A stretch of 64,000 bases of DNA from a virus, in the IMG/VR virus record IMGVR_UViG_3300025400_000011, positions 1 through 64,000 of that record; one strand, 5' to 3'. Both the position numbers and the translations under genes were made by a program. Positions within the stretch are counted from its first letter, which is position 1. Each line of letters begins with the position of its first letter. Under the pieces are notes generated by a model. It did not search any database. It saw only the letters and a list, made by a program, of their open reading frames with translations, and was not told where the DNA came from. Positions 3,616 to 47,868 of the stretch are shown here, one piece after another.

Positions 3616-3616
3616 A

Positions 3617-4270
3617 TTACCACCAGGAACTACCGTCAATAAATAAAGAGTGTCCGTTTTGCTCTTTTGTAATGTTTTTAATAGTATTGAGCAGTGCTGT
3701 TGAACGTTCTTGCCAAACCTTCTCTTCAAACAGACCTGGATGAGGATTTATACAGAAAAATATACCTGGATGGTTGACGCTTGCAAAACCCCGAGCCATA
3801 GAAACATTTGTATATTTTTTTGCACCATACCCCGCCCATTGCCAGCACCCTTTTAGTTCAACTTCATTTTTTATAAAACCGGTTACCATCCAACCAATTT
3901 TAGTGTTATCGTTTATTTTACTTTCTAGTTTTTTAACTAAAAATACTGGTAATTGACAATCAGTCCAAAAACGATTAGCCCACATTTTAACATTACCTTC
4001 ATTAAAATCATTACCATTTTTTAAGCACCACTCTCCAGGATCATCTCCACCGTTTTGACTAAAAAATATTAAATCTAAATCAGGTAAAGTGTTTGCTATT
4101 TGTTCTGCTTGTTGTACACTTAAATTATTCCAATCTACCTTAATAGTAGTAACTCCATTAATATTCATATCTTTGCTTGTTACTACATAGCAATGATAGC
4201 CGTTATTAACTAAAGTTTGGGTGAAATTTACACCCCACTTACTACCCGTGCCTAATAATAATGCATTCAT
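3617..4270 (-). CDS. Short-chain dehydrogenase/reductase-like protein
   Basis: ALLLGTGSKWG glycine motif, DLIFFSQN, YGAKK (YxxxK) and C-terminal FIDG. Confidence 0.65.
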   Translation of the reverse strand: MNALLLGTGSKWGVNFTQTLVNNGYHCYVVTSKDMNINGVTTIKVDWNNLSVQQAEQIANTLPDLDLIFFSQNGGDDPGEWCLKNGNDFNEGNVKMWANRFWTDCQLPVFLVKKLESKINDNTKIGWMVTGFIKNEVELKGCWQWAGYGAKKYTNVSMARGFASVNHPGIFFCINPHPGLFEEKVWQERSTALLNTIKNITKEQNGHSLFIDGSSWW

Positions 4271-5526: not shown

Positions 5527-5622
5527 ATATTATTTTAATTATAAAATGTTTAAAAATATCTATACCATTAGCTTGATTTCCTAAGAATAAACTATACTAT
5601 AGTAACATAACTAATACATACT

Positions 5623-6117
5623 ATGTCAAAAGAAGAATACGTTAAACTACAAGCTGTTATCGCTGCATTGCAAAAGACTGTTGAAGATCAAGAAAAGATT
5701 GATGAAATCCTTGATCTCTTAAGCAATGCTACAGTAGCTGTTGATGAAGCTGCTAAAACGGAAGAAGAAGCGGTTGATGCTTCTGAAGAAACCGGTAATG
5801 ATGAGGAAAGCGAACCAAAACCAAAGCAACAATACGTTATGCTTGTATCCGACACTAATAAGATTATTACAAAGGATCTAGTAGGTTGGGTATTACAGAT
5901 TCCAGAAGATGATGATGTAGCTACTGTTATAGATTCTATTAAGAATGGTGCTTATAACTTTAATGCCTCTAAGAAAGGCCAAAAGTATCCAGTATCATCT
6001 ATTGGTCAAGCTATTGCTAATGTACCAAACAAGTTCTTTAAGACAAACAATCTAAAGATTAAGACTAAAGAACCTGTACAGATTATTACAACTAATAATG
6101 TGTTACCAAGATCTTAA
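5623..6117 (+). CDS. Hypothetical acidic protein
   Basis: 164-aa ORF with phage-like codon usage. A TTGATT-N16-TACTAT sigma70-like element lies upstream (5573-5600). Confidence 0.7.
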   Translation: MSKEEYVKLQAVIAALQKTVEDQEKIDEILDLLSNATVAVDEAAKTEEEAVDASEETGNDEESEPKPKQQYVMLVSDTNKIITKDLVGWVLQIPEDDDVATVIDSIKNGAYNFNASKKGQKYPVSSIGQAIANVPNKFFKTNNLKIKTKEPVQIITTNNVLPRS

Positions 6118-8297
6118 GGAGTAGGCACTATAGCTGGTCCTACTAGAGTTGAACCAGGACCATTAGGGCCAGCTATTGTAGGTGCATCTTTAAGTAAGAA
6201 CTTTGTTGGTGGTGGTATACCAACAGTAGAGCTTCTACCGTCGCTACGGCCTTCATGACCGATAGCTTTATTATCGCTAACACCAATCTTAGAAGCAGCA
6301 TAAGCGTTAAATGGACTTGGTCCAACTGGTGGTTGTGCAAGTAAAGTGAGTGGTAAGTTCTTGAATACGTGAGTGTGTGGTTGTGCAATAGTTAATACAC
6401 CTGCACCAGCTGTATTTAAATCTACCGTACCTGCATTAATCTGCAATGTTACTGCTGTTTCTTTAGTAAGACTACCGCTTACTGTTAGAGGTGGTATGAT
6501 AACAGTTATACTACCTTGCATATTAGATCTAGAAATAGACCAACCACTACCTGGTGCACCAGCAGGACTTACACCGCCCGGGGCAGCTGGTCCTTTGGCG
6601 ACTATTTGAGTACTTTCTGTTACTTGGTATTCTATAGGAGCGGTTACGTGATTTACAAACATTTCACCTTCTACGTAAGCACCACCCCCGATAATAACGT
6701 TCTTTGATACACCTAAAGTGCTATCTACTACCACCTGTCCACCGATTTTATTTCTTAAGTTTAAAGTATCTGCATCAATGGTAACAAGACTACCATTAAT
6801 AGCGATTTGACCATCTTGAGAGCCTAGCGTAATAAGATCGCCTCTTACTTCAGTGGTGCCGCTAGCTATCTTCAAGTTACCTAATGTACGTAACTGCATA
6901 CCACCAGAACCAGCATCAACACTAAACTTGTTCATTGCATGTATGGTATAGTTACCACCAGGCATATCCGGTACATATAGTTCTGCAAACGCTGGAAAGT
7001 TATAAGGTCTAGTTTTAAACGTACCTGTAGGCAAATCTGGGGATATGCTTTGTATTCCGTTTAAACCATCAGTCAATATACCAGCTATATCTGATACATA
7101 AGCTTTAGCAGTGTTACGCTTTATACCCACTGTTACTACTTTATGTTTTGTGATAAACTCAAAGCTATTACCACCAAACCCCATTTCTTTTTCTTGTTCA
7201 GATAAAGGATTCACCACACTAGCTAACTGCGCAGCTAACTTTGCTGGATCGGTTATACCTGTTAAAGTACTATATATGTCACTCCATATTGATGTTGCTT
7301 TTGTACTGAAGTTACCAACCTTTAAGAAGTGATCTCCGTTAATGATATTATCACTAGTACGTCCTACATATAAGTTATTATGACCTTTTACAGTCTCAAA
7401 CTTATCAGCTAGGGTTAGTAACTGAAAGTTCTTAGGATTAAACAGAGCAGTAAAGTAGTTATTCATTTCATGATAACCACCACCGAAATGGGTCACCTTA
7501 TATGCTTCTCTATCAGTAGTATTAATAAACTCAATAGCAGCTGCACGCTGGTTAATAACCATCTTATTACGATAAGTTAAATGATCGTTTGTAGCACCTT
7601 GAGAAGCGTTTTTATCCTTATTTTCAAATGAATCTGGGTAATCAGGATAAGCACTACCTGCTTGATAGATACTGCTAAAATCGTTTTGTCCAAAAGCAGC
7701 AGCAAAGTAAACAGGTACTAATGGACTACCATCTCTAAAAAACACCCACACATGTGCACCTACATTAGGAACAGAAAATATACCCTTAGCAGCATTAGAG
7801 TATGTAGAGGGTTTATAGAGATCTGAATACTGATTAAAGTTTTGACTGTTTATCTTAGCTGTATTACCAAATGCATCACTCACCGGATGAGATTCAAAAT
7901 ACGAACCAGGTTTACCACCTTTGTTCTCTGGGTCAATGCTAGTTGCTGAAGAAGAGTTAGCATAGTTACTATTAGGTAACCCATATACTAAAGGAGCATC
8001 TGATACAGAGTTAACATCTGCATAAGCATTATAATAACCAGGGGTAGAAGCACCCATTATCGGGCTACACTGTTCTGCCCATGGTAACTGAGCTTTTAAA
8101 TCTGGTAATATTTGACTTAAGTTTTCTCCATTAGGTGTACCTGGAAAAGAAAACGTTTGATCTTGTTTTAACTGATTCCACTTGTTATAAACAATAGTAG
8201 ATATGTGAGGTACCCATACTTTCACTCTACCACGGTAATCAGGGTCATCGTTCTGTACAACTATGCCTACGTATATGCTATTAAATTGTTCTGTCAT
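6114..8297 (-). CDS. Baseplate central spike, gp5/VgrG-like OB-fold protein
   Basis: DDPDYRGRVKVWVP and FSVPNVGAHVWVFFRDG..PVYF (gp5 OB fold), beta-helix-like middle, HTH (QPHTHVF) apex motif. No lysozyme domain recognised. Confidence 0.8.
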   Translation of the reverse strand: MTEQFNSIYVGIVVQNDDPDYRGRVKVWVPHISTIVYNKWNQLKQDQTFSFPGTPNGENLSQILPDLKAQLPWAEQCSPIMGASTPGYYNAYADVNSVSDAPLVYGLPNSNYANSSSATSIDPENKGGKPGSYFESHPVSDAFGNTAKINSQNFNQYSDLYKPSTYSNAAKGIFSVPNVGAHVWVFFRDGSPLVPVYFAAAFGQNDFSSIYQAGSAYPDYPDSFENKDKNASQGATNDHLTYRNKMVINQRAAAIEFINTTDREAYKVTHFGGGYHEMNNYFTALFNPKNFQLLTLADKFETVKGHNNLYVGRTSDNIINGDHFLKVGNFSTKATSIWSDIYSTLTGITDPAKLAAQLASVVNPLSEQEKEMGFGGNSFEFITKHKVVTVGIKRNTAKAYVSDIAGILTDGLNGIQSISPDLPTGTFKTRPYNFPAFAELYVPDMPGGNYTIHAMNKFSVDAGSGGMQLRTLGNLKIASGTTEVRGDLITLGSQDGQIAINGSLVTIDADTLNLRNKIGGQVVVDSTLGVSKNVIIGGGAYVEGEMFVNHVTAPIEYQVTESTQIVAKGPAAPGGVSPAGAPGSGWSISRSNMQGSITVIIPPLTVSGSLTKETAVTLQINAGTVDLNTAGAGVLTIAQPHTHVFKNLPLTLLAQPPVGPSPFNAYAASKIGVSDNKAIGHEGRSDGRSSTVGIPPPTKFLLKDAPTIAGPNGPGSTLVGPAIVPTP

Positions 8298-9550
8298 GTG
8301 TTAGGAGGGTTTTGCACTGTATTAATACTTATCACTGAAGGATTACCATCACTCTTAACAGTACCTGGTATAATAGTAACTTTATTACTATTTAAGTTCG
8401 TTACGGCATTATTAGTTTGATAGTTTAATCCTACTGTTGTACCACCAACACTTACTACACTGTTAAAGCCTTGCACGGTAGCTGGTAAACGTTGTACAGT
8501 GTTAACAGTATTTTTAAGAAGATTGGTTTCCGTATTTAAAGTACCAGCAATACTACCTATACCCTGTTGTACAGTAGCTACAACTGTCTTAGTAGCTGCT
8601 AGCACTCCTTCAGCAGTATTCAGTACACTCTTTGCTGCACTTGCATAGCTCTGTAACTGTTGTAACACCTTAGTTACTGCAGTTGGGTTACCTACATTTA
8701 AGCCAAGCAACTTACCTATTGAAGGTAACTGTTTAATCTTATCTTTAATATATTGCTTTACATTAAAGATAGCTTCAGATAACATTCTACCTGGTGTTTT
8801 AATAGCGTTGTTAATCTTATCAACTGTATGATTAATGTTTTCAGTAATCTGATCAACATTCCAGTTCGAGTTGTTTTCTAAGTTACCGGTAAGGTTAGTA
8901 GCAAAAGGTATCTTTACTTTTAGTACTCCGTACTTTGTCTTAATACCAGCTTGTAAACTAAATGAAGCACCTTGATAAGCTAAAGCTTGACGTAAAAAGT
9001 TATTTGAACCTAAACCAAAGCCTTTAGGTGTAACGTTTTGATACAGTTTTAACAAATCGTTATTAAGAGAGTCTAACTCTTTAAACACATTTGATATAAC
9101 CTTGTTCTGTATAGGTAATGCAATAGGATCTCTACCAAAGTTAGGATTAGTATAGTCTGTATTGTTCGTACCATACGCTAAAGTACCTACCGAGTCTGAA
9201 AAGTTTTGATATATGTCAGGATAGTTAGCACTTAACTGTGCTACCACTTCTGGGTGGGAATAAAACATTGCCTGATCCCACCAACCATCTATCCATTGAG
9301 GGTTCAAAGCAGATAAAGGTTTAGTTATAGTGAACACTGGTTGTGGTGCTACTATATCAATACACGGATCATTTAAGTGTGTAAAAAAGTCTATTTGAGA
9401 ACCAATCGGATTAGAAGAAAACTTGGTACTATAATAAGCTTTAGCTATATTGTTCTCATTTGGATACCCTACTGCAGAATATCCAGGCACAACAGTAAGC
9501 GTATTATAATAGTCATACGTTTTTATTACTTGTTGTGCACTTAGAGCCAT
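8294..9550 (-). CDS. Putative baseplate/virion structural protein
   Basis: Lies in the baseplate operon, overlaps the gp5-like start (ATGA) and has a late motif upstream. Confidence 0.5.
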   Translation of the reverse strand: MALSAQQVIKTYDYYNTLTVVPGYSAVGYPNENNIAKAYYSTKFSSNPIGSQIDFFTHLNDPCIDIVAPQPVFTITKPLSALNPQWIDGWWDQAMFYSHPEVVAQLSANYPDIYQNFSDSVGTLAYGTNNTDYTNPNFGRDPIALPIQNKVISNVFKELDSLNNDLLKLYQNVTPKGFGLGSNNFLRQALAYQGASFSLQAGIKTKYGVLKVKIPFATNLTGNLENNSNWNVDQITENINHTVDKINNAIKTPGRMLSEAIFNVKQYIKDKIKQLPSIGKLLGLNVGNPTAVTKVLQQLQSYASAAKSVLNTAEGVLAATKTVVATVQQGIGSIAGTLNTETNLLKNTVNTVQRLPATVQGFNSVVSVGGTTVGLNYQTNNAVTNLNSNKVTIIPGTVKSDGNPSVISINTVQNPPNT

Positions 9551-32905: not shown

Positions 32906-32913
32906 TATAAATA
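32906..32913 (+). promoter_or_regulatory. T4-type late promoter TATAAATA
   Basis: Exact consensus in the intergenic gap before 32934. Confidence 0.7.
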
Positions 32914-36156: not shown

Positions 36157-36164
36157 TATAAATA
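36157..36164 (+). promoter_or_regulatory. T4-type late promoter TATAAATA
   Basis: Exact consensus in the intergenic gap before 36183. Confidence 0.7.
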
Positions 36165-36182: not shown

Positions 36183-39100
36183 ATGAGCAATACATTTGTA
36201 TACACAGCAATTAAAGGACAATCCGGTTTTTCAGGCGCGCAAGGTGTAGCAGGAGCTACAGGCACTTCTGGTTATTCCGGTATCTCTGGTTATACAGGTA
36301 TTAGCGGCTTCACTGGTATATCCGGTTATAGCGGCTTTACCGGCACTTCCGGTTACTCTGGTTTCACAGGTATATCTGGTTTTACAGGTATATCTGGCTA
36401 TACTGGCTTTTCAGGTATATCCGGTTATACAGGTATATCTGGCTATTCTGGTATCTCAGGCTTTAGCGGTTTTACTGGTATTAGCGGTTATAGTGGTTTT
36501 TCTGGCTTTACAGGCATCTCTGGCTATACCGGTGTAAGTGGTTACAGCGGTTTTAGTGGAACAAGCGGCTACTCTGGTATTTCAGGTTATTCAGGCTTTA
36601 CAGGTATATCTGGTTATACAGGTATATCTGGTTATTCAGGCTATTCAGGCTTTAGCGGTTTTTCAGGTATTAGCGGTTATTCCGGCTTTAGCGGTTTTAC
36701 AGGTATCAGTGGTTATTCAGGCTTTACTGGTATATCAGGCTTCACTGGTATAAGCGGTTACTCTGGTTTTTCTAGCTTTAGTGGTTATAGTGGTTTCTCT
36801 GGTGTATCTGGTCCAACAGGTGCTTCTATATACGGTAGAACATATTTTTTTAATGAAACCAATAGTGACCAACCTGCTTATGAAACAATTGCATTGACAC
36901 CGGGTGGTGGTGGGGTTACTCAATATGATGATGTTGCTTATGTTAACAGTACTAATAGTAATGCTTATAGTGCACAATCAATAGGTGGTTATTTAACTCC
37001 TATTGGAGAGCCAGGTATTGCAGAAATACCAGCTGGTATTTGGGACATTGAATGGTTTTATCAAGTAGGCGCGGGTGCAACAACACCAAACCCTTCTGCA
37101 GGCTTTGTATTTAGTTTGTATAGCTATTCAATGGCTACAAGCTCAACTAGTGCATTTATTTTAAGTGCAGATACAGGAGCAGTGTTTACAACAGCTGCAA
37201 CACCAACATATACTAAGTTTAGTTATGTAACAAGTAATATTACTTTACTTTCAGCTACAGATAGAATACTTGTTAATGTAGGAATGTATTCACCGAATAC
37301 ACAAACAGTATCGGCTACATTTATATATAATGGTGCAACTAATTATTCTGTAATTAGAACTCCAATCGGTCAAGGTGTATCTGGTGCTTCTGGTTATTCT
37401 GGTGTTGGTACTTCAGGTTATTCAGGCTTTACTGGTATATCTGGTTTTACAGGTATTTCTGGCTATAGCGGTTTTTCTGGTGCTAAAGGCTCTACAGGTA
37501 CATCTGGTTATAGCGGCTTTACAGGTATTTCTGGTTATACAGGTATATCAGGTTATAGCGGTATAAGCGGTTACTCAGGCTTTACAGGTATAAGCGGTTA
37601 TTCAGGCTTTAGCGGTTTTACTGGTATATCTGGTTACTCAGGTATTTCTGGTTGGTCTGGCTTCACTGGTATATCAGGCTTTACTGGTATTTCAGGCTAT
37701 AGTGGTTTTAGTGGTATAAGCGGTTACACCGGTATATCTGGCTATAGTGGTATCAGTGGTTTCTCAGGTTTTACAGGCATAAGTGGTTATACCGGTATAT
37801 CAGGCTATTCTGGTATTAGTGGTTTTTCAGGCTTTACAGGTATATCAGGCTTTACAGGTATTTCTGGTTACTCTGGTTTTACAGGTGTATCAGGCTATAG
37901 CGGCTTTACTGGTATTTCCGGTTATACTGGTATATCAGGTTATTCTGGCTTCTCTGGTTCTGCTGGGGTTTCCGGTTTTAGTGGTATATCTGGTTTTTCT
38001 GGTACAAGCGGTTTAAATGCTACTAATGTAAACGTAACATACAGCAACTCTTTTAGTCCAGGCAATGTTATATACAAAACTTCTGGTGGTTATGCTTTAG
38101 CACAAGCAAATGCAGCTTCTACATCAGATATTATTGGTGTTGTAATAAGTGCAACAGGTACATCATTTCAGTATGTAGCTAACGGCTACACTTCAGGCTT
38201 TACCGGTATTGTAGACGCTGCACAATACTATCTTTCAGATACTACAGCAGGTCTAATGACCACAACACCTCCTTCAGCTATTGGTTCTATTATTAAACCA
38301 GTAATGATTGGTATAGGTACTACAGCTGGTCTAATAGTTGAGTATCCTGGTTCACAGATTCAGGCTGCTAATGCAAATTCTGGTTATTCTGGTTTTTCCG
38401 GTGCAGGACAATCTGGTTACAGTGGTTTTTCTGGCTTAAAAGGCTCAACAGGCGCTCAAGGTTCTACAGGTAGTACTGGTACATCTGGTTATTCGGGCTT
38501 TAGCGGAACTAATGGTACAAATGGTACTAACGGTACTTCTGGTTATTCAGGCTTTAGTGGTACAAATGGTACTAACGGTACTTCTGGTTACTCTGGTTTT
38601 ACAGGCATATCTGGTTATAGCGGTTTTTCAGGCTTTTCTGGAGCATTTGCAGGTAGTACAGGTACTACAAATTATGTAGCTAAGTTTACAGGTACGAATT
38701 CATTAGGCACAGGCTTAATATACGACAATGGTACTAATGTTGGTGTTGGTCTAACAGCTCCTAATACAAGCTTACAAATAAATAACAATGGTACTTACGC
38801 TACGACCGGTAATATGAATACCGGTATAGTTGTAGGTAATAACACTAGCGGAGCAGCTCTCAACTCTGGTGCATATGATTCAGGTACTACTACGACTTCT
38901 TATGGCTGGTTTAATACTGGTTATGCCAATAATGCTAATATAGGCGTTTCTATGATTTTTGCTGCAGGTGGTACCGAAAAAATGCGTATTACTACTGGTG
39001 GTAATGTCGGTATCGGTACGACTGCACCTAGCGGTACACTTACAGTTGCTGGTTCTTTGTCAGCTAAAACAGCAAGTATAGCTCAAAACTTTACAGTGGA

Positions 39101-39452
39101 TGTTAACGGTAACGCTACTGCTGTATCGTTTACTTCAACATCTTCTAAAGTTGGTAAGACAAATATCAGACCATTATCATCTTTTATTGTAGATCCATTA
39201 GCAACTACTCAATTATTAAATGCAGTCGTGTATGATAGTTTAATTGATGTATCCGCTACTAACGAAATTGGTTTTATTGCAGAAGATGTATTACCAGTAC
39301 TACCAGCTGTAGTTTCCACAGAAGGAGATGTAGTTGTTGGTATTGATTATAGCCGTATAACAGCTCTTCTTACTGAAGCAGTTAAAGCACAACAAGTACA
39401 AATAAACAACCTAAATATATTAATAACGCAATTAAGTGCAAGATTAAGTTAA
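36183..39452 (+). CDS. Fibre protein 3 with C-terminal S74-type intramolecular chaperone
   Basis: Gly-X-S/T arms, shared central domain, EKMRITTGGNVGIGTTAP fibre motif, and TSSKVGKTNI..IGFIAEDV..V.P.VV..IDYSRITALL.EAVK. Confidence 0.8.
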   Translation: MSNTFVYTAIKGQSGFSGAQGVAGATGTSGYSGISGYTGISGFTGISGYSGFTGTSGYSGFTGISGFTGISGYTGFSGISGYTGISGYSGISGFSGFTGISGYSGFSGFTGISGYTGVSGYSGFSGTSGYSGISGYSGFTGISGYTGISGYSGYSGFSGFSGISGYSGFSGFTGISGYSGFTGISGFTGISGYSGFSSFSGYSGFSGVSGPTGASIYGRTYFFNETNSDQPAYETIALTPGGGGVTQYDDVAYVNSTNSNAYSAQSIGGYLTPIGEPGIAEIPAGIWDIEWFYQVGAGATTPNPSAGFVFSLYSYSMATSSTSAFILSADTGAVFTTAATPTYTKFSYVTSNITLLSATDRILVNVGMYSPNTQTVSATFIYNGATNYSVIRTPIGQGVSGASGYSGVGTSGYSGFTGISGFTGISGYSGFSGAKGSTGTSGYSGFTGISGYTGISGYSGISGYSGFTGISGYSGFSGFTGISGYSGISGWSGFTGISGFTGISGYSGFSGISGYTGISGYSGISGFSGFTGISGYTGISGYSGISGFSGFTGISGFTGISGYSGFTGVSGYSGFTGISGYTGISGYSGFSGSAGVSGFSGISGFSGTSGLNATNVNVTYSNSFSPGNVIYKTSGGYALAQANAASTSDIIGVVISATGTSFQYVANGYTSGFTGIVDAAQYYLSDTTAGLMTTTPPSAIGSIIKPVMIGIGTTAGLIVEYPGSQIQAANANSGYSGFSGAGQSGYSGFSGLKGSTGAQGSTGSTGTSGYSGFSGTNGTNGTNGTSGYSGFSGTNGTNGTSGYSGFTGISGYSGFSGFSGAFAGSTGTTNYVAKFTGTNSLGTGLIYDNGTNVGVGLTAPNTSLQINNNGTYATTGNMNTGIVVGNNTSGAALNSGAYDSGTTTTSYGWFNTGYANNANIGVSMIFAAGGTEKMRITTGGNVGIGTTAPSGTLTVAGSLSAKTASIAQNFTVDVNGNATAVSFTSTSSKVGKTNIRPLSSFIVDPLATTQLLNAVVYDSLIDVSATNEIGFIAEDVLPVLPAVVSTEGDVVVGIDYSRITALLTEAVKAQQVQINNLNILITQLSARLS

Positions 39453-39461
39453 ATATAGAAT

Positions 39462-40493
39462 ATGGCTACTCCATTTACATATAGTATACAAGGTGTTTCT
39501 GGTTTTTCTGGTACTCAAGGTGCAACCGGTACGTCGGGATATTCTGGTTTTAGCGGACCTCAAGGGCCACAAGGATTTAGTGGAGCTGCAGGTACTTCTG
39601 GTTATAGTGGTATATCTGGTGCACAAGGTGCACAAGGAACTAATGGAACGATTGGGCAGAACGGTGCACAAGGTGCACAAGGCGCAACAGGTGCTCAAGG
39701 TGCAGCAGGTACGTCAGGATATTCTGGTTTTAGTGGAGCTAAAGGATCTACTGGAGCTCAAGGATCTACTGGTGCTCAAGGCTCAACAGGTGCTCAAGGC
39801 TCAACAGGTGCTCAAGGCACTTCAGGCGCTCAAGGCGCAACCGGTACTTCTGGTTTTTCAGGCCAGCTTGGCGCTAACACTACTGTGTATGTACAAAGTG
39901 GTTCAGTAAGTGGTGTACCTACAGCCGCGGGTAATGGTAATCTTTGGTGGAACACAGATACTGGTGCCTTAAACATTTGGATATCGTCTTCTAGTTCTTG
40001 GGTAGTTGCAGTGCCATATGTTGATCCTTCTACTATATTTAAAACTTCTGGTGGTAACATAACTGGTAACGTTGGTATATCTGGAGCGTTAAACGTAACA
40101 GGTGCTATTACAGCTACTAGTAGTATTACTGCTAATTATTCTGATAAACGACTTAAAGATATTAAAGGCAATATTTTAAATGCGTTGTCAAAAGTTTTAT
40201 TACTTAATGGTGTGAACTACACTGCTAATGAAACTGCTCAACGTTACGGTTATTCATCTGAAACTCCTGAAGTAGGTTTAATAGCTCAGGAAGTACAGGT
40301 AGTTTTACCTGAAGTTATTAAGTTAGCACCGTTCGATACTGTAACCAATGAAGATGGTTCAACATATTCTAAGAGCGGTGAAAACTATATAACTATACAA
40401 TATGAAAGAATGATTCCTTTACTTGTTGAGGCCATAAAAGAACAGCAAGCTCAGATAGAGGAACTTAAAGCACTCATTAAAGCAAAGGCCTAA
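39462..40493 (+). CDS. Short collagen-like fibre with S74 chaperone
   Basis: GAQ/GST triplets, GNLWWNTDTG motif and YSDKRLK...GLIAQEVQ.VLPEV...YERMIPLLVEAIKE. Confidence 0.85.
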   Translation: MATPFTYSIQGVSGFSGTQGATGTSGYSGFSGPQGPQGFSGAAGTSGYSGISGAQGAQGTNGTIGQNGAQGAQGATGAQGAAGTSGYSGFSGAKGSTGAQGSTGAQGSTGAQGSTGAQGTSGAQGATGTSGFSGQLGANTTVYVQSGSVSGVPTAAGNGNLWWNTDTGALNIWISSSSSWVVAVPYVDPSTIFKTSGGNITGNVGISGALNVTGAITATSSITANYSDKRLKDIKGNILNALSKVLLLNGVNYTANETAQRYGYSSETPEVGLIAQEVQVVLPEVIKLAPFDTVTNEDGSTYSKSGENYITIQYERMIPLLVEAIKEQQAQIEELKALIKAKA

Positions 40494-40496
40494 AGT

Positions 40497-41558
40497 ATGG
40501 CAAACCAGCTAAGTTTTCCAACTTCACCTTCAAGTGCACAAAGGTACATTTCTCCTATAGGGTGGGTGTACACTTATGACGGTTATACCTGGAATACAAC
40601 AGGTAGGTTAGGTATGGCTGGGTTTACAGCTGAAAACTCATTTTTATATCGTACCGTGTATACTCGTGGTTATGTACATTGCGGTTATCAAGGTGGTAGT
40701 CCTTGGCGTAATACTAATAGAACTATACATTTAACCGATACAACCACTAACTTAGGTGATATGATGGATAATGGTGCATCATACATTGACGGTGGGTTTA
40801 GTGATTATAACACGTATGTGTTTAATGACTCTGGTGCAGTTAATGGTACTTCTTCTTACACGTCATCAATGAGTATGACGACTGAATCTTTAAGAACTCA
40901 TAATAGTAATAGAGATTTAAAACAGTCTCGTGCAAACTGTAAAGCGTTAATGAACGCAGGACTCACTTCAATATATATTACTGGTGGTAACTCTTCTAAT
41001 ACAGATAAATTTTGCACTATTACAGATACAATGTTGTCATTAAGTCTTATTAGCGGTGGTAACTCAGGTCAAACAGCAGGTGGTCTTAGCGGTTTTTGGG
41101 GTCAGTACTATGGCTGGGTTAGTAGCGATAACTCTGGCACTAGTTGTTTTGCTTGGAGTACTGAAACTTATATAACAGTCATCAACTACAGTTTAGATAC
41201 AGACGGTCAACCGAAAGGTTTATCTAGTAAATGGGGATTTGGATACAACTCAACCGGTTCATATGCTGGTTCGTCAACATTATATAAGTTTAACGATACT
41301 AACGGTACTTCAGTATCAAGTTTTAGTCGTCCTGAATCTTGCGGAGAAGAAAATATGCAAGTAGGGCAAGATTGGGGATATGCCCTTGGTTCCTATAACG
41401 GTGGTAACCAAACAAATAACACTCAAAAGATATACTACACCACAGATACCTGTTCAGGTATGGGTTCCACTACTCAACCTAAAGGCCACGGTGGAATGTC
41501 ATCCGGTAGTTGCGGTTCTGGTAGTGTAACTTTATTAGGTGGTTCATTAGGTGGTTAA
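40497..41558 (+). CDS. Kelch-like beta-propeller protein, paralogue A
   Basis: Short N-terminal FPTSP..Y.YDG..W tether, then repeats of about 45 aa (GY.HCGY, IYITGG...TDK...TDT, GY.LG.Y...TQKI.Y.TDT). Confidence 0.55.
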   Translation: MANQLSFPTSPSSAQRYISPIGWVYTYDGYTWNTTGRLGMAGFTAENSFLYRTVYTRGYVHCGYQGGSPWRNTNRTIHLTDTTTNLGDMMDNGASYIDGGFSDYNTYVFNDSGAVNGTSSYTSSMSMTTESLRTHNSNRDLKQSRANCKALMNAGLTSIYITGGNSSNTDKFCTITDTMLSLSLISGGNSGQTAGGLSGFWGQYYGWVSSDNSGTSCFAWSTETYITVINYSLDTDGQPKGLSSKWGFGYNSTGSYAGSSTLYKFNDTNGTSVSSFSRPESCGEENMQVGQDWGYALGSYNGGNQTNNTQKIYYTTDTCSGMGSTTQPKGHGGMSSGSCGSGSVTLLGGSLGG

Positions 41559-41570
41559 ATAAATATTTTT

Positions 41571-42641
41571 ATGCCTTTAAGTTTTCCATCAACACATCCA
41601 GCAGGTACAATATACGAAGGGTTTGCCAATGGCTATCTTTATGTTTTTGATGGCTACGAATGGGTAATGACTCCAAACACGTTTACCAATGCTATATCAG
41701 CCTGGTTTACCAGCTTTTTATACCGTACACTTTACACTCGTGGGTATATGCACTGTGGATATCAAAATAGTTCACTTTGGAGAAACACTAACAGGACTGT
41801 ACATAGTACTGACGTTACCACCAATCTCGGTGATATGATGGATAACGTTGCAAACTATATGGATTGTGGGTTTAGTGATTATCATTCTTATGTGTTTAAC
41901 GATAGCGGTTCATTTCAAGGTAGTTCAACTACTGTTTCTAGAATGAATATGACTACAGAGTCGTTAATAGGATATACAGGTAATGCAAATATGACTGTAA
42001 GCAGGACAGATTGTAAAACGCTTATGAGCCCTACATTAACCTACATATATATTACCGGTGGTGGTAACTCTAGCACTGATAAACTTAATACCGTATCAGA
42101 TACAACTCTTAACTCCGGTAATGTTGGCGGATCAAGTTGTTCTGGTGGTACTGCAGGCGGTCTTAGCGGGTTCTTCGGTCAGTTTTACGGTACAGTTGGA
42201 GCAAACAGTTCATCAGCTTCTTTAAACTTTTCAAATGAAACCTGGACTACTGGTACCTGGTCTTTTGCTTCTAGTACTGACGGACAACCGAAAGGTCTAT
42301 CAAGTAAAGTAGGTTACGGGTATAACTCTTCAGGTACGTATAATGGTAGTTCAACATATTACAAATTTAACGATACAACAAGATCTCAAATCTCCTCATT
42401 CAGCCGTCCAGAATCTTGCGGGGAAGAAAACTGTGAAATAGGACAAGACTGGGGCTATACGTTAGGTTCTTATAACGGTAGTGGACAAACTAATAACTCT
42501 ACTAAAACATATTATACAACAGATTCTTGTGTATCAATGGGTTCCACTACTCAACCTAAAGGACACGGAGGTGCTTCTTCTGGCGGTTGCGGTACAGGTA
42601 GTTGTTCTTTATTAGGTGGACTTCCAGGCACATCAATGTAA
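41571..42641 (+). CDS. Kelch-like beta-propeller protein, paralogue B
   Basis: Colinear with paralogue A: FLYRT.YTRGY.HCGYQ, TTNLGDMMDN, TDGQPKGLSSK, RPESCGEEN and TTQPKGHGG are all shared. Confidence 0.55.
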   Translation: MPLSFPSTHPAGTIYEGFANGYLYVFDGYEWVMTPNTFTNAISAWFTSFLYRTLYTRGYMHCGYQNSSLWRNTNRTVHSTDVTTNLGDMMDNVANYMDCGFSDYHSYVFNDSGSFQGSSTTVSRMNMTTESLIGYTGNANMTVSRTDCKTLMSPTLTYIYITGGGNSSTDKLNTVSDTTLNSGNVGGSSCSGGTAGGLSGFFGQFYGTVGANSSSASLNFSNETWTTGTWSFASSTDGQPKGLSSKVGYGYNSSGTYNGSSTYYKFNDTTRSQISSFSRPESCGEENCEIGQDWGYTLGSYNGSGQTNNSTKTYYTTDSCVSMGSTTQPKGHGGASSGGCGTGSCSLLGGLPGTSM

Positions 42642-42654
42642 CTATTTAACGAAT

Positions 42655-43287
42655 ATGAATTATTATCTTACTAAATTTTTCCGATACATACCTAATATTG
42701 ATGGTATGACCGTTATAACAGGTATTGATAATTTTAATATTGTCAGCCTTGCAACCGATACTGCTATTGCAACATTAAGTGCTTACGAAGCACATCCTTT
42801 TGAAGGCATACCAAAGACAATACCTATGGTAGAGTTGACTGAAGTTGAAGCACTGTCTGCTCATAAGTTTTATGCTGAAACTCGTGGTTACCGTAAAGCA
42901 TATTCCGATCTAGAAGGATTAGAACCGGATGCTGATGAGTTAGCAAAAGGTAGCAGAAAAACAAAAATTTACTTGACTGATGATATGACAGCAGCTACTA
43001 TATCACTAATGAAGAAAGCTCATAAGTTACACATTGATCAAGAAATGGAAGATAGACGTTTAGGTTTACCTAATCTTGATAGCACTGAAAGACCTGCTTA
43101 TAACGCAGATAAACACGCCGAATTGTTAACACAGGCAGATAGTTTATCTTCTATTGATGATCACGTTGAAGCACGAGAAACGGTACTTGGTCACGAAATG
43201 ACAAAGGATCTTGCTAGTAGAAAAGGACTTTGGGATGATACTAGAAACGCTAGAAAAGAAAAAGTAAAATTTGGATACCAATTCTAA
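42655..43287 (+). CDS. Hypothetical protein (start likely ATG 42655)
   Basis: First ATG after the upstream stop at 42641. Mostly helical C-terminal half. Confidence 0.65.
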   Translation: MNYYLTKFFRYIPNIDGMTVITGIDNFNIVSLATDTAIATLSAYEAHPFEGIPKTIPMVELTEVEALSAHKFYAETRGYRKAYSDLEGLEPDADELAKGSRKTKIYLTDDMTAATISLMKKAHKLHIDQEMEDRRLGLPNLDSTERPAYNADKHAELLTQADSLSSIDDHVEARETVLGHEMTKDLASRKGLWDDTRNARKEKVKFGYQF

Positions 43288-43288
43288 T

Positions 43289-43999
43289 ATGGAAAACGAA
43301 GATATTATTAAATTTGTCGATGAAAACGAAAACTCTATCGGTATGTCCGATTTTCAGGCTCGTTATTTTGTTGTAAATTCTCAGGTAACAGATTACCGCA
43401 GAGTGCGTCAAGCTTTATTAGAGATTGACAATCGTAACGGTATGTTAAAACAGGTTCAACGTCAGCGTAAAAAGCGTATTATCGAAAAACAAATAATACA
43501 AAGAGATATCGATAATGAGTTTGATGATCTTAAAAAACAAATATTACAGGTAGACTTAGAGCAAGCAGTTTGGGACATTCATATGTATGACAAGAAAGAG
43601 AAAATGTGTCAAAATGAAATTGATATGTTTTCTGATATGGTAAGATCAATGTGTCCAGATATGCAGAGTTTAGAGAAATATAAAGACAACAATGAAGAGC
43701 TAGAACGCGAGTACTGGATTACAAGAATGGCTAAACAGGCTGCAATGGACTTAAATACTATCGGTCGTATCGGTCAAGGTAACTTAGATTCGATTTTAAT
43801 GATGCCTTTAACAGATGTTAAAGAAACACTTCAGTTAGCTATTAAATACAACGGCGTGTTAGGTAAAGGTATCGATGCTATTGGTCAAGCAACAATGAAG
43901 CAGTTAATAGGTTCAAAAGGAACCGATTTAGCTTATATTGATGATGTTGCTAAAGATCAGTTAAAGATCGAAGCCAAGACCAAGAGTGAAGATATTTAG
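43289..43999 (+). CDS. Coiled-coil hypothetical protein (start likely ATG 43289)
   Basis: TAA-T-ATG coupling. QVTDYRRVRQALLEI, heptad-rich middle and EREYWITRMAKQAAMDL. Confidence 0.65.
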   Translation: MENEDIIKFVDENENSIGMSDFQARYFVVNSQVTDYRRVRQALLEIDNRNGMLKQVQRQRKKRIIEKQIIQRDIDNEFDDLKKQILQVDLEQAVWDIHMYDKKEKMCQNEIDMFSDMVRSMCPDMQSLEKYKDNNEELEREYWITRMAKQAAMDLNTIGRIGQGNLDSILMMPLTDVKETLQLAIKYNGVLGKGIDAIGQATMKQLIGSKGTDLAYIDDVAKDQLKIEAKTKSEDI

Positions 44000-45620
44000 T
44001 ATACCTCTTAACCCTAAGCTTACAGAACAACAGTTCTACACGTTTTTAGAGTTCTGTAAAGAGTATAAAGATTATATATACGACATATATTTTACTTGTC
44101 GTATTGATCCTTTCTTGCAAGATGCAATGGGTGATGTGTTTGTACAAAAAGATGCACATCAGTTTGCTATTGAAACAGCTTTATATGTACAAAAAGAAAC
44201 AGGTATAACTGTATCTGCTACGTTTAATAATATATCAGTACGAGCTAGTCAAAAGAACTTAGAGACTTGGATAAAAAACTTTAAACCTTTATATGATGCT
44301 GGTATAAGGTCTTGTACCCTACCCCATACACACTGGATGTTAACTAAACAGGTTAAACATAACTTTCCAGAACTATTTGTTAAGAACACTATTTTAAGAG
44401 CGGTTAAAGAACCAAGAGAAGTAGCAGCTTTAGCACAGGCTGGTTTTAACTATGTTAATCTTGATCGAGTACTCATGAGAGATCATGATAGACTTAGAGA
44501 GATAAAAAGAGTTAAAGACAAATACGATATCAAGCTATCTTTATTAGCTAATGAAGGTTGTGTAGGCGGGTGCCCTGTAATGGATGAGCATTACCACTTT
44601 AATAATACTAGAACAACAGGCAATCAGTACTTTACAGATCCTATTAGTAGAGTTAGTTGCCCTAAATGGCAGACTCAAGATTCAGCTGTACAGTTAACTA
44701 ATGCTAACTTTCCACCTTGGAGAGAAGATTGGTTAGAGTTTTTAGAGCTAGGTATTGATACGATTAAAATGCACGGTAGAGAGAATAGTAACCGTCTTAA
44801 TGAGACAATGGACATTATTCGTAGGTTTGCCAATAAAGAAGAAATACTGTTCAGTGGTTTCGAGCCTTATATAGAAGACACGAACTTAATAGAAAAACCT
44901 ATAAACACTTGGCGTCAAAAGATTAAGACGTGTAAGTTTAACTGTTGGGATTGTGATTACTGTACAAAAGTATGGAGAGCCAAGGGTAATAAAAACAATA
45001 AGAAAGTTGAAAAGGTAGCTCAATTATTAATAGACACTGTTAATCAGCCAATAGGAGATACTGTAGAAGGTATTACTTCAGATAAGATGAAACAGTTGTT
45101 AAACGGTATTGGTAAAATATCGACAGGTTACCTCGAAGTGGGTGTGTTAAACGGTGGCACATTTTGCGCTACCATTAAAGATAATAATCTCAAGGCATAT
45201 GCAGTCGATCATTGGCAAGAACAAACCAAATCTGCTAATGGTAAGGTAGATCTTGAATCCTCGAAAGAAAAATTTATTGAGAATGCTAAAAAGTATAAAG
45301 GTAATAACACTTTAAAGATATTCAATAGCCATTTTTTACAAGTCGAAAAATCTGATATTGGTAATATAGACTTTTTCTTTTATGATGCAGATCATAGCGA
45401 AGAAGCCAACTATCAAGCTATAATGTACTTTGCAGATAAGCTAGTAGATGAAGCTGTTCTTATATTTGACGATGCAAATTTTGATGGGGTAGTTAGCGGT
45501 GCTAAACGCGGTATTGCTGATGCTGGTTTAGAAGTAATATACGATAAGATATTATTAAATGATTTAGAAGATCCTGATATGTGGTGGAATGGTTTTTACC
45601 TGGCTATTGTAAAGAAATAA
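43986..45620 (+). CDS. U32 family (Fe-S hydroxylase-like) domain fused to class I SAM-dependent methyltransferase
   Basis: NLDR.L.RD, LANEGCVGGCP...H...SC, IKMHGRE (U32 KIEGR-like), CKFNCWDCDYC; then YLEVGVLNGGT, AVDHW, FFYDADH and LIFDD (Methyltransf_24-like). Confidence 0.75.
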   Translation: MKIFSIPLNPKLTEQQFYTFLEFCKEYKDYIYDIYFTCRIDPFLQDAMGDVFVQKDAHQFAIETALYVQKETGITVSATFNNISVRASQKNLETWIKNFKPLYDAGIRSCTLPHTHWMLTKQVKHNFPELFVKNTILRAVKEPREVAALAQAGFNYVNLDRVLMRDHDRLREIKRVKDKYDIKLSLLANEGCVGGCPVMDEHYHFNNTRTTGNQYFTDPISRVSCPKWQTQDSAVQLTNANFPPWREDWLEFLELGIDTIKMHGRENSNRLNETMDIIRRFANKEEILFSGFEPYIEDTNLIEKPINTWRQKIKTCKFNCWDCDYCTKVWRAKGNKNNKKVEKVAQLLIDTVNQPIGDTVEGITSDKMKQLLNGIGKISTGYLEVGVLNGGTFCATIKDNNLKAYAVDHWQEQTKSANGKVDLESSKEKFIENAKKYKGNNTLKIFNSHFLQVEKSDIGNIDFFFYDADHSEEANYQAIMYFADKLVDEAVLIFDDANFDGVVSGAKRGIADAGLEVIYDKILLNDLEDPDMWWNGFYLAIVKK

Positions 45621-45634
45621 TATAAAATATAGCT

Positions 45635-46702
45635 ATGAGTGACTTTTTAGACCGTTTTTATCTCGGAGACGAAATCTATCTCTTTGTACTCTTTACTATT
45701 ATGGTAGTAGCGGGTATTGCCAAAGAGCATAACCTGTTTGGATGTACGTACGGATGGTTAAAATTTAAACTTAAAAGTAACAAGTTAGTTATTGCTGTTA
45801 TTAGTCTTATTAGCGGTATATTACCTCTAGAAGGTAGAAGTACAGTTAGTGCAGGTATATTAGATACAGCAACAGCTTCAAAGGAGAAAGATGTAAAAGC
45901 ACGTCAAAAACTTGGACCTATCGACTTCCTTACCACCCATCACTATTATATGTGGTCTCCTATTGAGAAACCAGTAATACTACCAATGGCTGCGTTTGGT
46001 ATTACATATGCAGTATGGTTAAAAATGTTATGGCCGTTGATAGCTGTTAGTGCTGCATTTATTTTTTACTATTTATTCTTTGTTATTAAAGAAGACGAAA
46101 TAGAGATTACACCTCAAGAAAATCTTGGCGCTGGTAATTTTATCAAAAACGTAATACCGTTTATTGCTGCTGTTCTTACGTATATGCTACTTGGAGGAGA
46201 AGGCCCAGAGTTAGTGTTTCCTATCTTCGGTACTCTATTAGCTTATTATCTGTATATTACTAAGACTTATAGCTGGAAAAAGATTAGTAGTTATGTTAAT
46301 TGGACTACAATCACACTGATTGGTGTCATCTTCTTTACATCTGGTTATATGCAAGAGCATAGAGCTTGGATTGAACACGCTGTAAGAAACTGGGGCTTGG
46401 ATCCACATACATTTAGTGGTATGTATATTATTAGTATGTTACTATTTGCTGCTAGCTTTAGTATGGGTAGTGACGGTAAGTTTGCTGCACTAACAGTATT
46501 AGCTACAACAGTATTCGGTAGACAGTATCTACTATGGTTTTTTGCATTAGATTATTGTGGTTATCTTTTAACTCCAATGCACGAATGTGTTATGATTGGT
46601 AAACGTTACTTTGGTACCCCTCTATCCACATATTATAAAGCATTAGGTACCTGGGCATTTTTACTTTTATTAACTGCAGCTATTTTTACTTTTATTAAAT
46701 GA
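45635..46702 (+). CDS. Multi-pass membrane transporter, DUF401/IT-superfamily-like
   Basis: About 9-10 hydrophobic segments. GILPLEG...SA, HH..MWSP....IL and GYLLTPMHEC......YFG match my recollection of DUF401 motifs. Confidence 0.6.
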   Translation: MSDFLDRFYLGDEIYLFVLFTIMVVAGIAKEHNLFGCTYGWLKFKLKSNKLVIAVISLISGILPLEGRSTVSAGILDTATASKEKDVKARQKLGPIDFLTTHHYYMWSPIEKPVILPMAAFGITYAVWLKMLWPLIAVSAAFIFYYLFFVIKEDEIEITPQENLGAGNFIKNVIPFIAAVLTYMLLGGEGPELVFPIFGTLLAYYLYITKTYSWKKISSYVNWTTITLIGVIFFTSGYMQEHRAWIEHAVRNWGLDPHTFSGMYIISMLLFAASFSMGSDGKFAALTVLATTVFGRQYLLWFFALDYCGYLLTPMHECVMIGKRYFGTPLSTYYKALGTWAFLLLLTAAIFTFIK

Positions 46703-46842: not shown

Positions 46843-47868
46843 ATGGCATATTTTAATCCAGCAAACGCTTACTCAGGTTATTCAGGCTACGGTGCACAAG
46901 GCTTCCAAGGAGCTCAGGGCGCTACAGGTGCTCAAGGTGCACAGGGTTTCCAAGGCCCACAAGGCGTTTCTGGTTACTCAGGCTTTACTGGCATAAGTGG
47001 TTATAGCGGTTTTACTGGTATTTCTGGTTACTCCGGCTTCAGCGGTGTTAAAGGTTCAACAGGTCTTTCTGGTACTTCAGGTTACTCAGGCTTTACTGGT
47101 ATTTCAGGCTACTCTGGTTTCTCTGGCCCACAAGGCTTCCAAGGACCTCAAGGTTTTTCAGGTACATCTGGTTACTCAGGCTTTACTGGTATTTCAGGTT
47201 TTAGTGGTCCTGGCGCTAACCAAACATTAAACACAAACAGCACTGTAGTATTCCAAACACTTTCAGCATTTTCAATCAGTGCAGTTAACTTAATCACGTT
47301 AAACGAGTATTTTGCATCTGCATCAAACTTTACTACATATGGTAATACGTTATTAAGTGGTGCTACTACAGTACAAGGTAACATGACTGTAAACGGTGTA
47401 GTCTTAGCTTCAGGTAATCTAGGTGTTGGTACAGCTTCACCAAGTTCCACATTAACAGTTAACGGTACATTATCAGCTGCTGGTGCAGTTGCTGTATCCA
47501 ATAACACATTTACGATTGATAAGACTGGTAACGTAGTAGCTTTAAGCTATAGTTCAACATCTACAAGACTACAAAAGACTAACATCAGAGATTTAGAAGA
47601 TGTTATTCCTGATGCTTTAGGCGTTACTCAAAACCTACACCCAGTTGTATACGATAGTTTAGTTGATGCATCAAGCAAAGACAACATCGGTCTTATTGCT
47701 GAAGACGTGTATTCTTTATTACCAAATGTGGTTAACCAATACACTGATGCTAATGGTGACCAAACATTTGTTGGTATTGATTACAGCCGTCTAACAGCTA
47801 TTCTTATTGATAACATTAAAGTGTTATCAAACAAGATTCAAGAGCTTAGTGCAAAGCTGCCACAATAA
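46843..47868 (+). CDS. Short Gly-X-Y fibre with S74-type chaperone
   Basis: GFQ/GAQ/SGY triplets, NQTLNT, GNLGVGT.SP and TSTRLQKTNI..IGLIAEDV..IDYSRLTAIL. Confidence 0.8.
   Translation: MAYFNPANAYSGYSGYGAQGFQGAQGATGAQGAQGFQGPQGVSGYSGFTGISGYSGFTGISGYSGFSGVKGSTGLSGTSGYSGFTGISGYSGFSGPQGFQGPQGFSGTSGYSGFTGISGFSGPGANQTLNTNSTVVFQTLSAFSISAVNLITLNEYFASASNFTTYGNTLLSGATTVQGNMTVNGVVLASGNLGVGTASPSSTLTVNGTLSAAGAVAVSNNTFTIDKTGNVVALSYSSTSTRLQKTNIRDLEDVIPDALGVTQNLHPVVYDSLVDASSKDNIGLIAEDVYSLLPNVVNQYTDANGDQTFVGIDYSRLTAILIDNIKVLSNKIQELSAKLPQ

Follow-up and report, generated by a model that had tools for sequence, protein, structure and literature searches.

Which reaction could a T4-like cyanophage carry out with a gene that joins a barrel distantly related to the U32 protein family to a methyltransferase? 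The gene occupies positions 43986-45620 on the plus strand of a 64,000-nucleotide stretch of viral DNA (positions 1 to 64,000 of the IMG/VR record IMGVR_UViG_3300025400_000011), which we call the window. It covers the part of a T4-like cyanomyovirus genome that encodes structural and tail-fibre proteins, and the whole record measures 108,882 bp and is estimated to be 58% complete. A preliminary description of the locus had proposed that this single polypeptide hydroxylates and O-methylates a substrate, with the wobble uridine of tRNA as one candidate and the Phe/Tyr rings of the fibre repeats as the other. Our analysis leads us, with moderate confidence, to read the protein as a two-domain tailoring enzyme, in which a U32-like barrel would hydroxylate and an attached O-methyltransferase would then methylate, by analogy to known enzyme pairs and within a cassette of late fibre genes. 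The arrangement combines a U32-like barrel that has a new cluster layout, its fusion to an O-methyltransferase, and a location in a phage fibre cassette.

A conserved phage gene with two domains

The gene and the parts of its product that carry the argument are as follows.

43986-45620, plus strand: fusion gene for a U32-like domain joined to an O-methyltransferase; open reading frame of 544 amino acids (aa) with a GTG start; matches phrog_1458 (E 5e-165) and T4-like GC354
43986-44885, plus strand: N-terminal (beta/alpha)8 triosephosphate isomerase (TIM) barrel, U32-like, residues 1 to ~300 (VIA-align, Foldseek, hhalign)
44559-44660, plus strand: cysteine triad C192-X3-C196...C225 with E201-H202, in the loop after strand 183-187 (kept in at least 90% of 69 homologues)
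44766-44780, plus strand: K261-x-x-G264-R265, located on the final strand of the barrel and corresponding to 'KIEGR' in U32 proteins (global hhalign alignment to UbiU KIEGR)
44931-44963, plus strand: C316-X3-C320-X2-C323-X2-C326, after the barrel (invariant in 69/69 homologues; absent from the E. coli U32 proteins)
45033-45617, plus strand: class I S-adenosylmethionine (SAM) methyltransferase of the metal-dependent O-methyltransferase type, residues ~350-544 (Pfam PF13578, VIA-align)

The results confirm that 43986-45620 is a real, widely conserved phage gene. One metagenomic homologue has the same length (544 aa), 98% identity and a coverage of 100%. Homologues align to the fusion protein from residue 2-3 through the C-terminal end, and the start codon call is therefore correct. 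The full length of the protein is matched by phrog_1458, and phrog_36869 matches only its N-terminal 330 residues. By tblastn, relatives of the N-domain were found in 126 of 50,697 phage records, 123 from cyanophages and three from Ralstonia jumbo phages. All 123 of the former, which are Synechococcus and Prochlorococcus myoviruses, carry the fused gene, the best match being PHM2_101 of phage P-HM2 (44% identity; annotated 'hypothetical protein, T4-like GC 354'), and the Ralstonia records have the N-domain alone, as a stand-alone 346-aa protein. More than 1,900 relatives are present in the metagenomic protein collection. A HMMER search with the N-domain against 1.84 billion representatives identified 327 relatives, and many of these consist of the domain alone (330-460 aa).

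This gene family is known so far only as 'hypothetical'. The clusters T4-GC351-354 were listed solely as hypothetical or 'sericin-like', in 5 of 16 genomes (Sullivan et al. 2010). Neither the fusion protein nor its cassette partners (see below) matched any model in NCBIfam. The literature that we searched contained no paper linking cyanophages with U32 and no virion-proteomics statement on the T4-GC351-354 cassette genes.

AlphaFold models built from 62- and 69-sequence alignments are of high confidence (predicted local distance difference test, pLDDT, 92.5 and 92.6) and show a (beta/alpha)8 barrel. When the N-domain model was compared exhaustively with 48,161 chains using VIA-align, the first match was 5d88_A, the U32 protein Mk0906, with Z 17.4 and a root-mean-square deviation of 3.0 A over 224 of 247 residues. 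It leads the next TIM barrels by 4.4 Z units (MTHFR at 13.0, CutC at 12.2). A Foldseek search of the PDB likewise returned 5d88 as the top match (E 4e-8). In the predicted models, the N-domain fold is thus closest to that of Mk0906, the only U32 protein with a solved structure.

Profile comparison pointed in the same direction. Using as reference a four-sequence alignment of the E. coli proteins UbiU, UbiV, TrhP and RlhA, hhalign produced a colinear local match to the family over 112 columns (E 7e-5, probability 63%) and a global match over 310 columns (E 1e-6, probability 83%), in which K-x-x-G-R falls on 'KIEGR'. Among neighbour clusters in the ESM Atlas, PF01136 was found in 20% of the members and one cluster was automatically named 'Peptidase U32 (Fragment)'. 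PDB sequence searches with the single protein and with the N-domain profile returned nothing useful. Because the U32 relationship is seen only by structure and by profile-to-profile comparison, the label 'U32-type', which the preliminary description had attached to the sequence motifs, holds only loosely: Pfam membership, the family signature and the cysteine pattern of U32 are all missing (see below). From the fold and the probable remote homology we conclude that the N-domain is a distinct sister family of U32, outside U32 as currently defined.

The motifs themselves were described correctly. NEGCVGGCP spans residues 189-197 (C192, C196) and is followed by E201-H202 and C225; KMHGRE covers residues 261-266; and CKFNCWDCDYC, a CX3CX2CX2C string, covers residues 316-326. 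All of them lie in the 544-aa reading frame and are conserved in homologues. We assessed conservation in 69 of the 327 HMMER relatives, with 22-48% identity to the query. At least 90% of these keep D33, N81, K133, T135, D160, R161, R165 and E190 as well as C192, C196, E201, H202, C225, K261, G264 and R265, and C316, C320, C323 and C326 are invariant in 69/69, fused or stand-alone. Judged from these alignments, the motifs are under strong selection and do not reflect chance. The triad C192/C196/C225 is a probable metal or iron-sulphur (Fe-S) site; the global hhalign alignment places it in the loop where U32 proteins carry their Fe-S cysteines, although this stretch of the alignment has low confidence. 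The K-x-x-G-R string is also present in E. coli UbiU, TrhP and RlhA, and CX3CX2CX2C (316-326) is predicted to be a second, family-specific metal or Fe-S site.

The assignment of the C-terminal part as a class I methyltransferase was borne out. Pfam Methyltransf_24 (PF13578) matches residues 383-496 with E 2e-9 and 38.6 bits, above the cut-off of 26.3, and the fold is that of O-methyltransferases such as TrmR and COMT. In the VIA-align search with the full model, metal-dependent O-methyltransferases take nearly all of the top ranks for residues ~350-544: TomG (Z 17.0), S. avermitilis COMT (16.8), MycF (16.6), Rv0187 (16.5), a B. cereus O-methyltransferase (16.3), SafC (16.1) and TrmR (5zw3; 15.8). 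The matches to TomG, COMT, MycF, Rv0187 and TrmR each span ~165-183 aligned residues. Since these Z scores are effectively tied, catechol-type and sugar-type O-methyltransferases cannot be distinguished on this basis. In 18 full-length homologues, SAM motif I (E384-x-G386-x3-G390), D408, D467 and D495-D496 are invariant and N498 is nearly so. When the family profile was searched against PDB sequences, TrmR/YrrM came first, at a non-significant E of 0.13; in this weak match D467 (DAD) and D495-D496-A-N498 (DDAN) align with the TrmR metal-site motifs FIDA and TDN, and His470 takes the position of the catalytic Lys of TrmR. His470 presumably also stands where COMT-type enzymes carry their catalytic Lys.

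The whole-protein AlphaFold model (pLDDT 92.5) has a predicted template modelling score (pTM) of 0.86, which indicates that the two domains are packed in a fixed arrangement. Several of the structural alignments to O-methyltransferases start at model residues 210-219, and the model suggests that the U32-like insert helices at residues 210-240, which include C225, may replace the N-terminal lid helices of O-methyltransferases.

Taken together, these observations are consistent with the following scheme. Domain 1 (residues 1 to ~340), a TIM barrel that is probably a distant homologue of U32 and has its own metal-site layout, would oxidise or hydroxylate an aromatic or heteroaromatic ring at an sp2 carbon. 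Domain 2 (~350-544), probably of the catechol type and metal-dependent, would methylate the new hydroxyl to give a methoxy group. The enzyme would act within a co-inherited late-gene cassette inside the fibre operon, most likely on a virion protein encoded by the cassette or fibre genes, or on a small molecule handled by a DUF401 protein; tRNA is a less likely substrate. For the proposal that one polypeptide both hydroxylates and O-methylates, the two folds and the conserved cysteines, which are of the kind that bind Fe-S clusters, are thus in place, and the activity itself is proposed by analogy.

Several results weigh against this scheme. Pfam Peptidase_U32 (PF01136) does not match the N-domain even at E 10, matches nowhere in the 108.9-kb record, although the same search was positive in 10 of 14 control genomes, and matches none of the 69 distant homologues at E 0.01. 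The PROSITE-type U32 signature, which we take to be E-x-F-x2-G-[SA]-[LIVM]-C-x4-G-x-C-x-[LIVM]-S, was found by regular expression in 0 of 69 family members, whereas E. coli UbiU, TrhP and RlhA were positive. The family cysteines are arranged as CX3CX28C plus a separate CX3CX2CX2C, unlike the canonical [4Fe-4S]-binding U32 pattern CX6CX15CX3/4C (bioRxiv 10.1101/587956). Direct hydroxylase activity has not been reconstituted for TrhP or RlhA (PMC10990095, PMC6599085). The majority of family members are stand-alone proteins that lack a methyltransferase, and methylation is therefore not intrinsic to the U32-like chemistry. Finally, the sugar O-methyltransferases MycF, SpnH and NovP tie with the other structural matches of the C-domain (Z 15.4-16.6), so that the methyl group could go to a hydroxyl already present on a glycan, with no preceding hydroxylation required.

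The fibre cassette and its relatives in other genomes

In the window, the fusion gene belongs to a plus-strand gene run (36183-46702) in which neighbouring genes overlap or are separated by gaps of at most 14 nucleotides (nt). The features of this run, and of the stretch just upstream of it, that matter here are listed below.

36157-36164, plus strand: TATAAATA, resembling a T4-type late promoter; the fibre reading frame at 36183 follows 19 nt downstream (motif search)
40497-42641, plus strand: two phrog_1417 paralogues, Gly/Ser/Thr-rich, 353 and 356 aa (E 7e-70, 9e-66); candidate substrates
42616-43287, plus strand: phrog_1604-like cassette gene, 223 aa (phrog match; same-slot gene in related loci)
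43271-43999, plus strand: phrog_1409 gene, 242 aa, predicted helical, with a 14-nt overlap between its 3' end and the fusion start at 43986 (phrog_1409 E 3e-56)
45635-46702, plus strand: DUF401 / IT-superfamily transporter-like membrane protein, 14 nt downstream of the fusion gene (Pfam DUF401 E 2e-7)

We compared this context with that of 80 IMG/VR loci encoding the fused gene. The order is phrog_1417 (one or two copies), the phrog_1604-like gene, phrog_1409 and the fusion gene, the middle two being swapped in some loci. The phrog_1409 gene is present upstream of the fusion in 80/80 loci, directly adjacent in most; the methyltransferase domain is found in 77/80 and phrog_1417 in 72/80, and most of the missing cases lie at contig ends. 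A gene of ~250-310 aa occupies the phrog_1604-like slot, or the position just after phrog_1409, in 63/80 loci. Within the phage collection, phrog_1417 and phrog_1409 each occur in 123 records, with an organism breakdown (77/38/8) identical to that of the fusion-carrying cyanophages. No Pfam family, PDB profile match or named ESM Atlas neighbour was found for phrog_1417, phrog_1604 or phrog_1409. Two collagen-repeat proteins with C-terminal Peptidase_S74 domains bracket the cassette (39462-40493 and 46843-47868).

The DUF401 gene shows a different distribution. It is present in 19/80 of the fused-form loci and missing from the other 61. Among the 50,697 phage records it was found in 12, and 12/12 also carry a U32-like gene. 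In the Ralstonia jumbo phages RP12 and RP31, the stand-alone U32-like gene is followed directly by the DUF401 gene (in RP31, locus L003:8016-9056), and in phage S-CAM4 the DUF401 gene (~159.6 kb) and the U32-like gene lie 58 kb apart.

Apart from the copy listed above, TATAAATA also stands at 32906-32913, ~20 nt upstream of a large fibre reading frame that starts at 32934, and no copy was found between 36164 and 46702. The window contains seven copies against a shuffled expectation of 12.7, a count not above chance, and only the position of the motif is suggestive. These positions give a hint, and only a hint, that the fibre operon is transcribed late as one unit.

The context of the stand-alone form (~410 aa) was examined in 80 loci of other T4-like phages. 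In sister lineages the U32-like gene is always located among fibre and neck genes. In one lineage a large fibre gene, a collagen-like S74 fibre, three Gly_rich_2 (PF21722) paralogues and a 138-aa protein precede the U32-like gene; they are followed by a 2-oxoglutarate (2OG)-Fe(II) oxygenase in some loci, a tryptophan-halogenase-family protein and, further on, gp15. The halogenase-family protein (PF04820, E 6e-107) occurs in 53/80 loci. This row occupies roughly positions 2000-9500 of loci L094, L099, L102, L110 and L126 and is seen in ~50 more. In 32/80 loci, collagen/S74 fibres are encoded 3-4 kb upstream of the stand-alone gene. In a third lineage the U32-like gene comes after three GT9 glycosyltransferases and before a 2OG-Fe(II) oxygenase, a carbamoyltransferase, a neck protein and gp15 (L143, L150 and L152, ~2400-8500). 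The idea that phrog_1417 is a diverged Gly_rich_2, and that the helper proteins of both cassette types are related, was rejected: hhalign between the partner proteins gave probabilities below 1%, and the resemblance of the cassettes is therefore architectural only. One further viral contig (L164, IMG/VR 2786546475_000024) carries two U32-like paralogues of 451 and 351 aa, separated by three paralogous ~350-aa proteins and a phrog_1409-like gene.

In cellular genomes, a search limited by its patterns found eight loci with a U32-like gene among 185,579 species. In one bacterial metagenome-assembled genome (MAG; L171:5998-9803) the U32-like gene is followed by a solute-binding protein (SBP_bac_5) and by a PF00891 O-methyltransferase of the plant, phenolic type. 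The U32-like gene and this methyltransferase gene lie two genes apart; here the barrel has been paired independently with an O-methyltransferase, and one from another family. In a Deltaproteobacteria MAG, where three contigs contain U32-like genes, one locus (L169; 1456-2388, 8719-10662) has a U32-like gene with a canonical PF01136 gene (E 5e-32) 2.8 kb upstream and, on its downstream side, a gene for a B12-binding radical SAM protein. In Halarcobacter, the gene that follows the U32-like gene was considered as another DUF401 and rejected; it is weakly APH-like.

Candidate substrates and alternative functions

Which substrate would such an enzyme modify? Three features favour a virion-associated protein: the gene sits in a late operon, phrog_1417 and phrog_1409 are strictly linked to it, and in the sister lineages its neighbours encode tailoring enzymes. 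In its most specific form, the cassette would place methoxy-aryl groups on Tyr, Phe or Trp residues of virion fibre or fibre-tip proteins, with sister lineages adding halogenation or 2OG-dependent oxidation. We offer this version tentatively, and stated so specifically it is fairly unlikely.

A small-molecule substrate is favoured by the DUF401 linkage and by the bacterial locus in which the barrel is accompanied by a solute-binding protein and an O-methyltransferase. As an alternative to protein modification, a soluble or lipid aromatic compound would be hydroxylated and O-methylated, much as by UbiU/UbiV together with UbiG, and the DUF401 protein would move the substrate, the product or a co-substrate. 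The preliminary description had not considered this reading, which we regard as a serious, although less likely, alternative. In phages DUF401 is found exclusively in the company of a U32-like gene, and in the Ralstonia jumbo phages the two are adjacent in genomes without the cyanophage cassette; UbiU and UbiV themselves act on a small lipid, and the halogenase and carbamoyltransferase neighbours of the sister lineages are typical natural-product tailoring enzymes. On the other hand, the gene is always found within late fibre and neck operons, co-inherited with two to three proteins that do not look enzymatic, and most of the marine cyanophage loci, as counted above, do without DUF401.

Modification of RNA, which the preliminary description had put forward in the form of the tRNA wobble uridine, is disfavoured by our results and in our judgement improbable. 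Here the protein would be the phage equivalent of TrhP1/TrhP2 plus TrmR and would make 5-hydroxyuridine (ho5U) and from it 5-methoxyuridine (mo5U) at the tRNA wobble position (or act on rRNA, through 5-hydroxycytidine, ho5C, and 5-methoxycytidine, mo5C), aiding the decoding of Ser/Thr-rich fibre genes. The sole characterised pairing of a U32 protein with a catechol-type O-methyltransferase does make mo5U, TrmR/YrrM is both the best, non-significant, PDB sequence match and a structural match of the C-domain, and one source names a close homologue 'O-methyltransferase YrrM'. However, in the fusion protein Pfam finds neither the TrhP C-terminal domain nor an RNA-binding domain: PF13578 is the sole match, the C-terminal half being a methyltransferase instead, and the protein is not PF01136. 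ARAGORN identified no tRNA gene in the window or in the 108,882-bp record (58% complete). The fusion is part of a late structural operon and strictly linked to phrog_1417 and phrog_1409, and in sister lineages the domain is paired with genes for a halogenase, 2OG oxygenases and glycosyltransferases instead of RNA enzymes.

No more probable is the tailoring of glycans, in which the methyltransferase would O-methylate a sugar on a virion glycoprotein or a host surface polysaccharide and the barrel would act on the sugar in a redox or lyase reaction of its own, so that hydroxylation and methylation would not be successive steps. The tie between sugar and other O-methyltransferases among the structural matches fits this possibility, as do the three GT9 glycosyltransferases and the carbamoyltransferase around the U32-like gene in one sister lineage and the Ser/Thr-rich cassette proteins. 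Against it, the cassette in the window contains no glycosyltransferase, sugars are not a known substrate of any U32 relative, and catechol-type enzymes make up the majority of the top structural matches.

The two remaining alternatives are both very improbable. A protease that cleaves or matures collagen-like fibres, as the old 'collagenase' annotation of the family would have it, could be suspected from the S74 fibres that flank the cassette and that lie upstream of the stand-alone homologue in many sister loci, but the conserved Cys, His and acidic and basic residues are those expected in an enzyme with a metal cluster, the U32 proteins characterised so far are Fe-S hydroxylation factors, a protease fused to an O-methyltransferase makes little sense, and S74 domains are self-cleaving chaperones that need no extra protease. 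Likewise, C316-X3-C320-X2-C323 reads as an invariant, classical CX3CX2C string, and TIM-barrel enzymes with C-terminal radical clusters exist (for example ThiC), which would allow a non-canonical radical SAM barrel with a C-terminal cluster; yet the fourth invariant cysteine, C326, would fully ligate the cluster, Pfam Radical_SAM matches neither the fusion protein nor any of the 69 distant homologues, and the top 50 structural matches include no such structure, while U32 stands out among them.

If the two-domain tailoring enzyme is the right reading, the family would be of interest in several respects. As O2-independent hydroxylation factors, U32 proteins form a class that is only now emerging; just three substrates are known (a quinone precursor, U34 of tRNA and C2501 of 23S rRNA), and no U32 activity has yet been reconstituted in vitro. 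The phage family is a compact, abundant and highly conserved offshoot of U32 with a double cysteine-cluster layout, common in T4-like cyanophages and on metagenomic phage contigs. In the lineage studied here it is joined to the enzyme that would be expected to use up its product, and a single polypeptide that turns C-H into C-OCH3 would make U32 chemistry convenient to study. It would also assign a function to T4-GC351-354, a conserved cyanophage cassette so far labelled 'hypothetical'. Should a fibre protein prove to be the substrate, the cassette would represent enzymatic tailoring of phage receptor-binding structures, and methoxy-aryl groups on fibres would amount to a hitherto unknown class of post-translational tailoring of phage adhesins, with the first protein substrate of a U32-type enzyme. 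The exclusive linkage to DUF401 provides a first functional handle on that uncharacterised family.

Comparison with known systems

The literature confirmed the background on U32 factors given in the preliminary description. The hydroxylation factors UbiU/UbiV, TrhP and RlhA of this family are O2-independent and depend on [4Fe-4S] clusters and prephenate. Ring hydroxylation without O2 requires UbiU and UbiV, both of which bind [4Fe-4S] clusters (bioRxiv 10.1101/587956), and the oxygen donor is prephenate (PMC10990095). Precedents for pairing a hydroxylase with an O-methyltransferase are the single B. subtilis operon yrrM(trmR)-yrrN(trhP2)-yrrO(trhP1), which makes mo5U (PMC6599085), the TrhO-TrmR fusions of some eukaryotes (PMC6599085), and the bacterial locus L171 described above.

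The closest of these by composition is the system of TrhP1/TrhP2 (YrrO/YrrN) and TrmR (YrrM), which converts tRNA U34 to ho5U34 and then to mo5U34. As in the phage, a U32-type barrel and a catechol-type O-methyltransferase form one genetic unit, an operon in B. subtilis and a fusion in the phage. In contrast to TrhP, the phage N-domain is not PF01136, does not show the U32 signature and is not followed by a TrhP C-terminal domain; its cysteines follow a different layout with an extra CX3CX2CX2C, and its gene lies in a fibre operon with unrelated partner proteins.

The E. coli ubiquinone system of UbiU/UbiV, UbiT and UbiG follows the same logic of ring hydroxylation and subsequent O-methylation. 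The phage barrel resembles UbiU/UbiV in its colinear profile match, including K..GR on KIEGR, and in conserved cysteines after the equivalent strand. UbiU and UbiV form a heterodimer and bind one [4Fe-4S] cluster each, via CX6CX16CX38C or CXnCX12CX3C, whereas the phage protein has two cysteine sets in one chain. It also lacks a UbiT/SCP2 partner, and its methyltransferase is similar to catechol O-methyltransferases, not to UbiG.

Mk0906 of Methanopyrus kandleri (PDB 5d88) offers the closest solved fold, with only 11% identity to the phage N-domain, and has neither a methyltransferase domain nor the C-terminal four-cysteine tail of the phage protein. The C-domain shares its fold with COMT, CCoAOMT, TomG, SafC, Rv0187 and MycF/TylF (Z 15-17). 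Like cation-dependent O-methyltransferases, it keeps SAM motif I together with the acidic residue that follows strand 2, and probably a metal site of the Asp/Asp/Asn type; unlike the COMT and CCoAOMT types, it belongs to Pfam Methyltransf_24 and not to Methyltransf_3.

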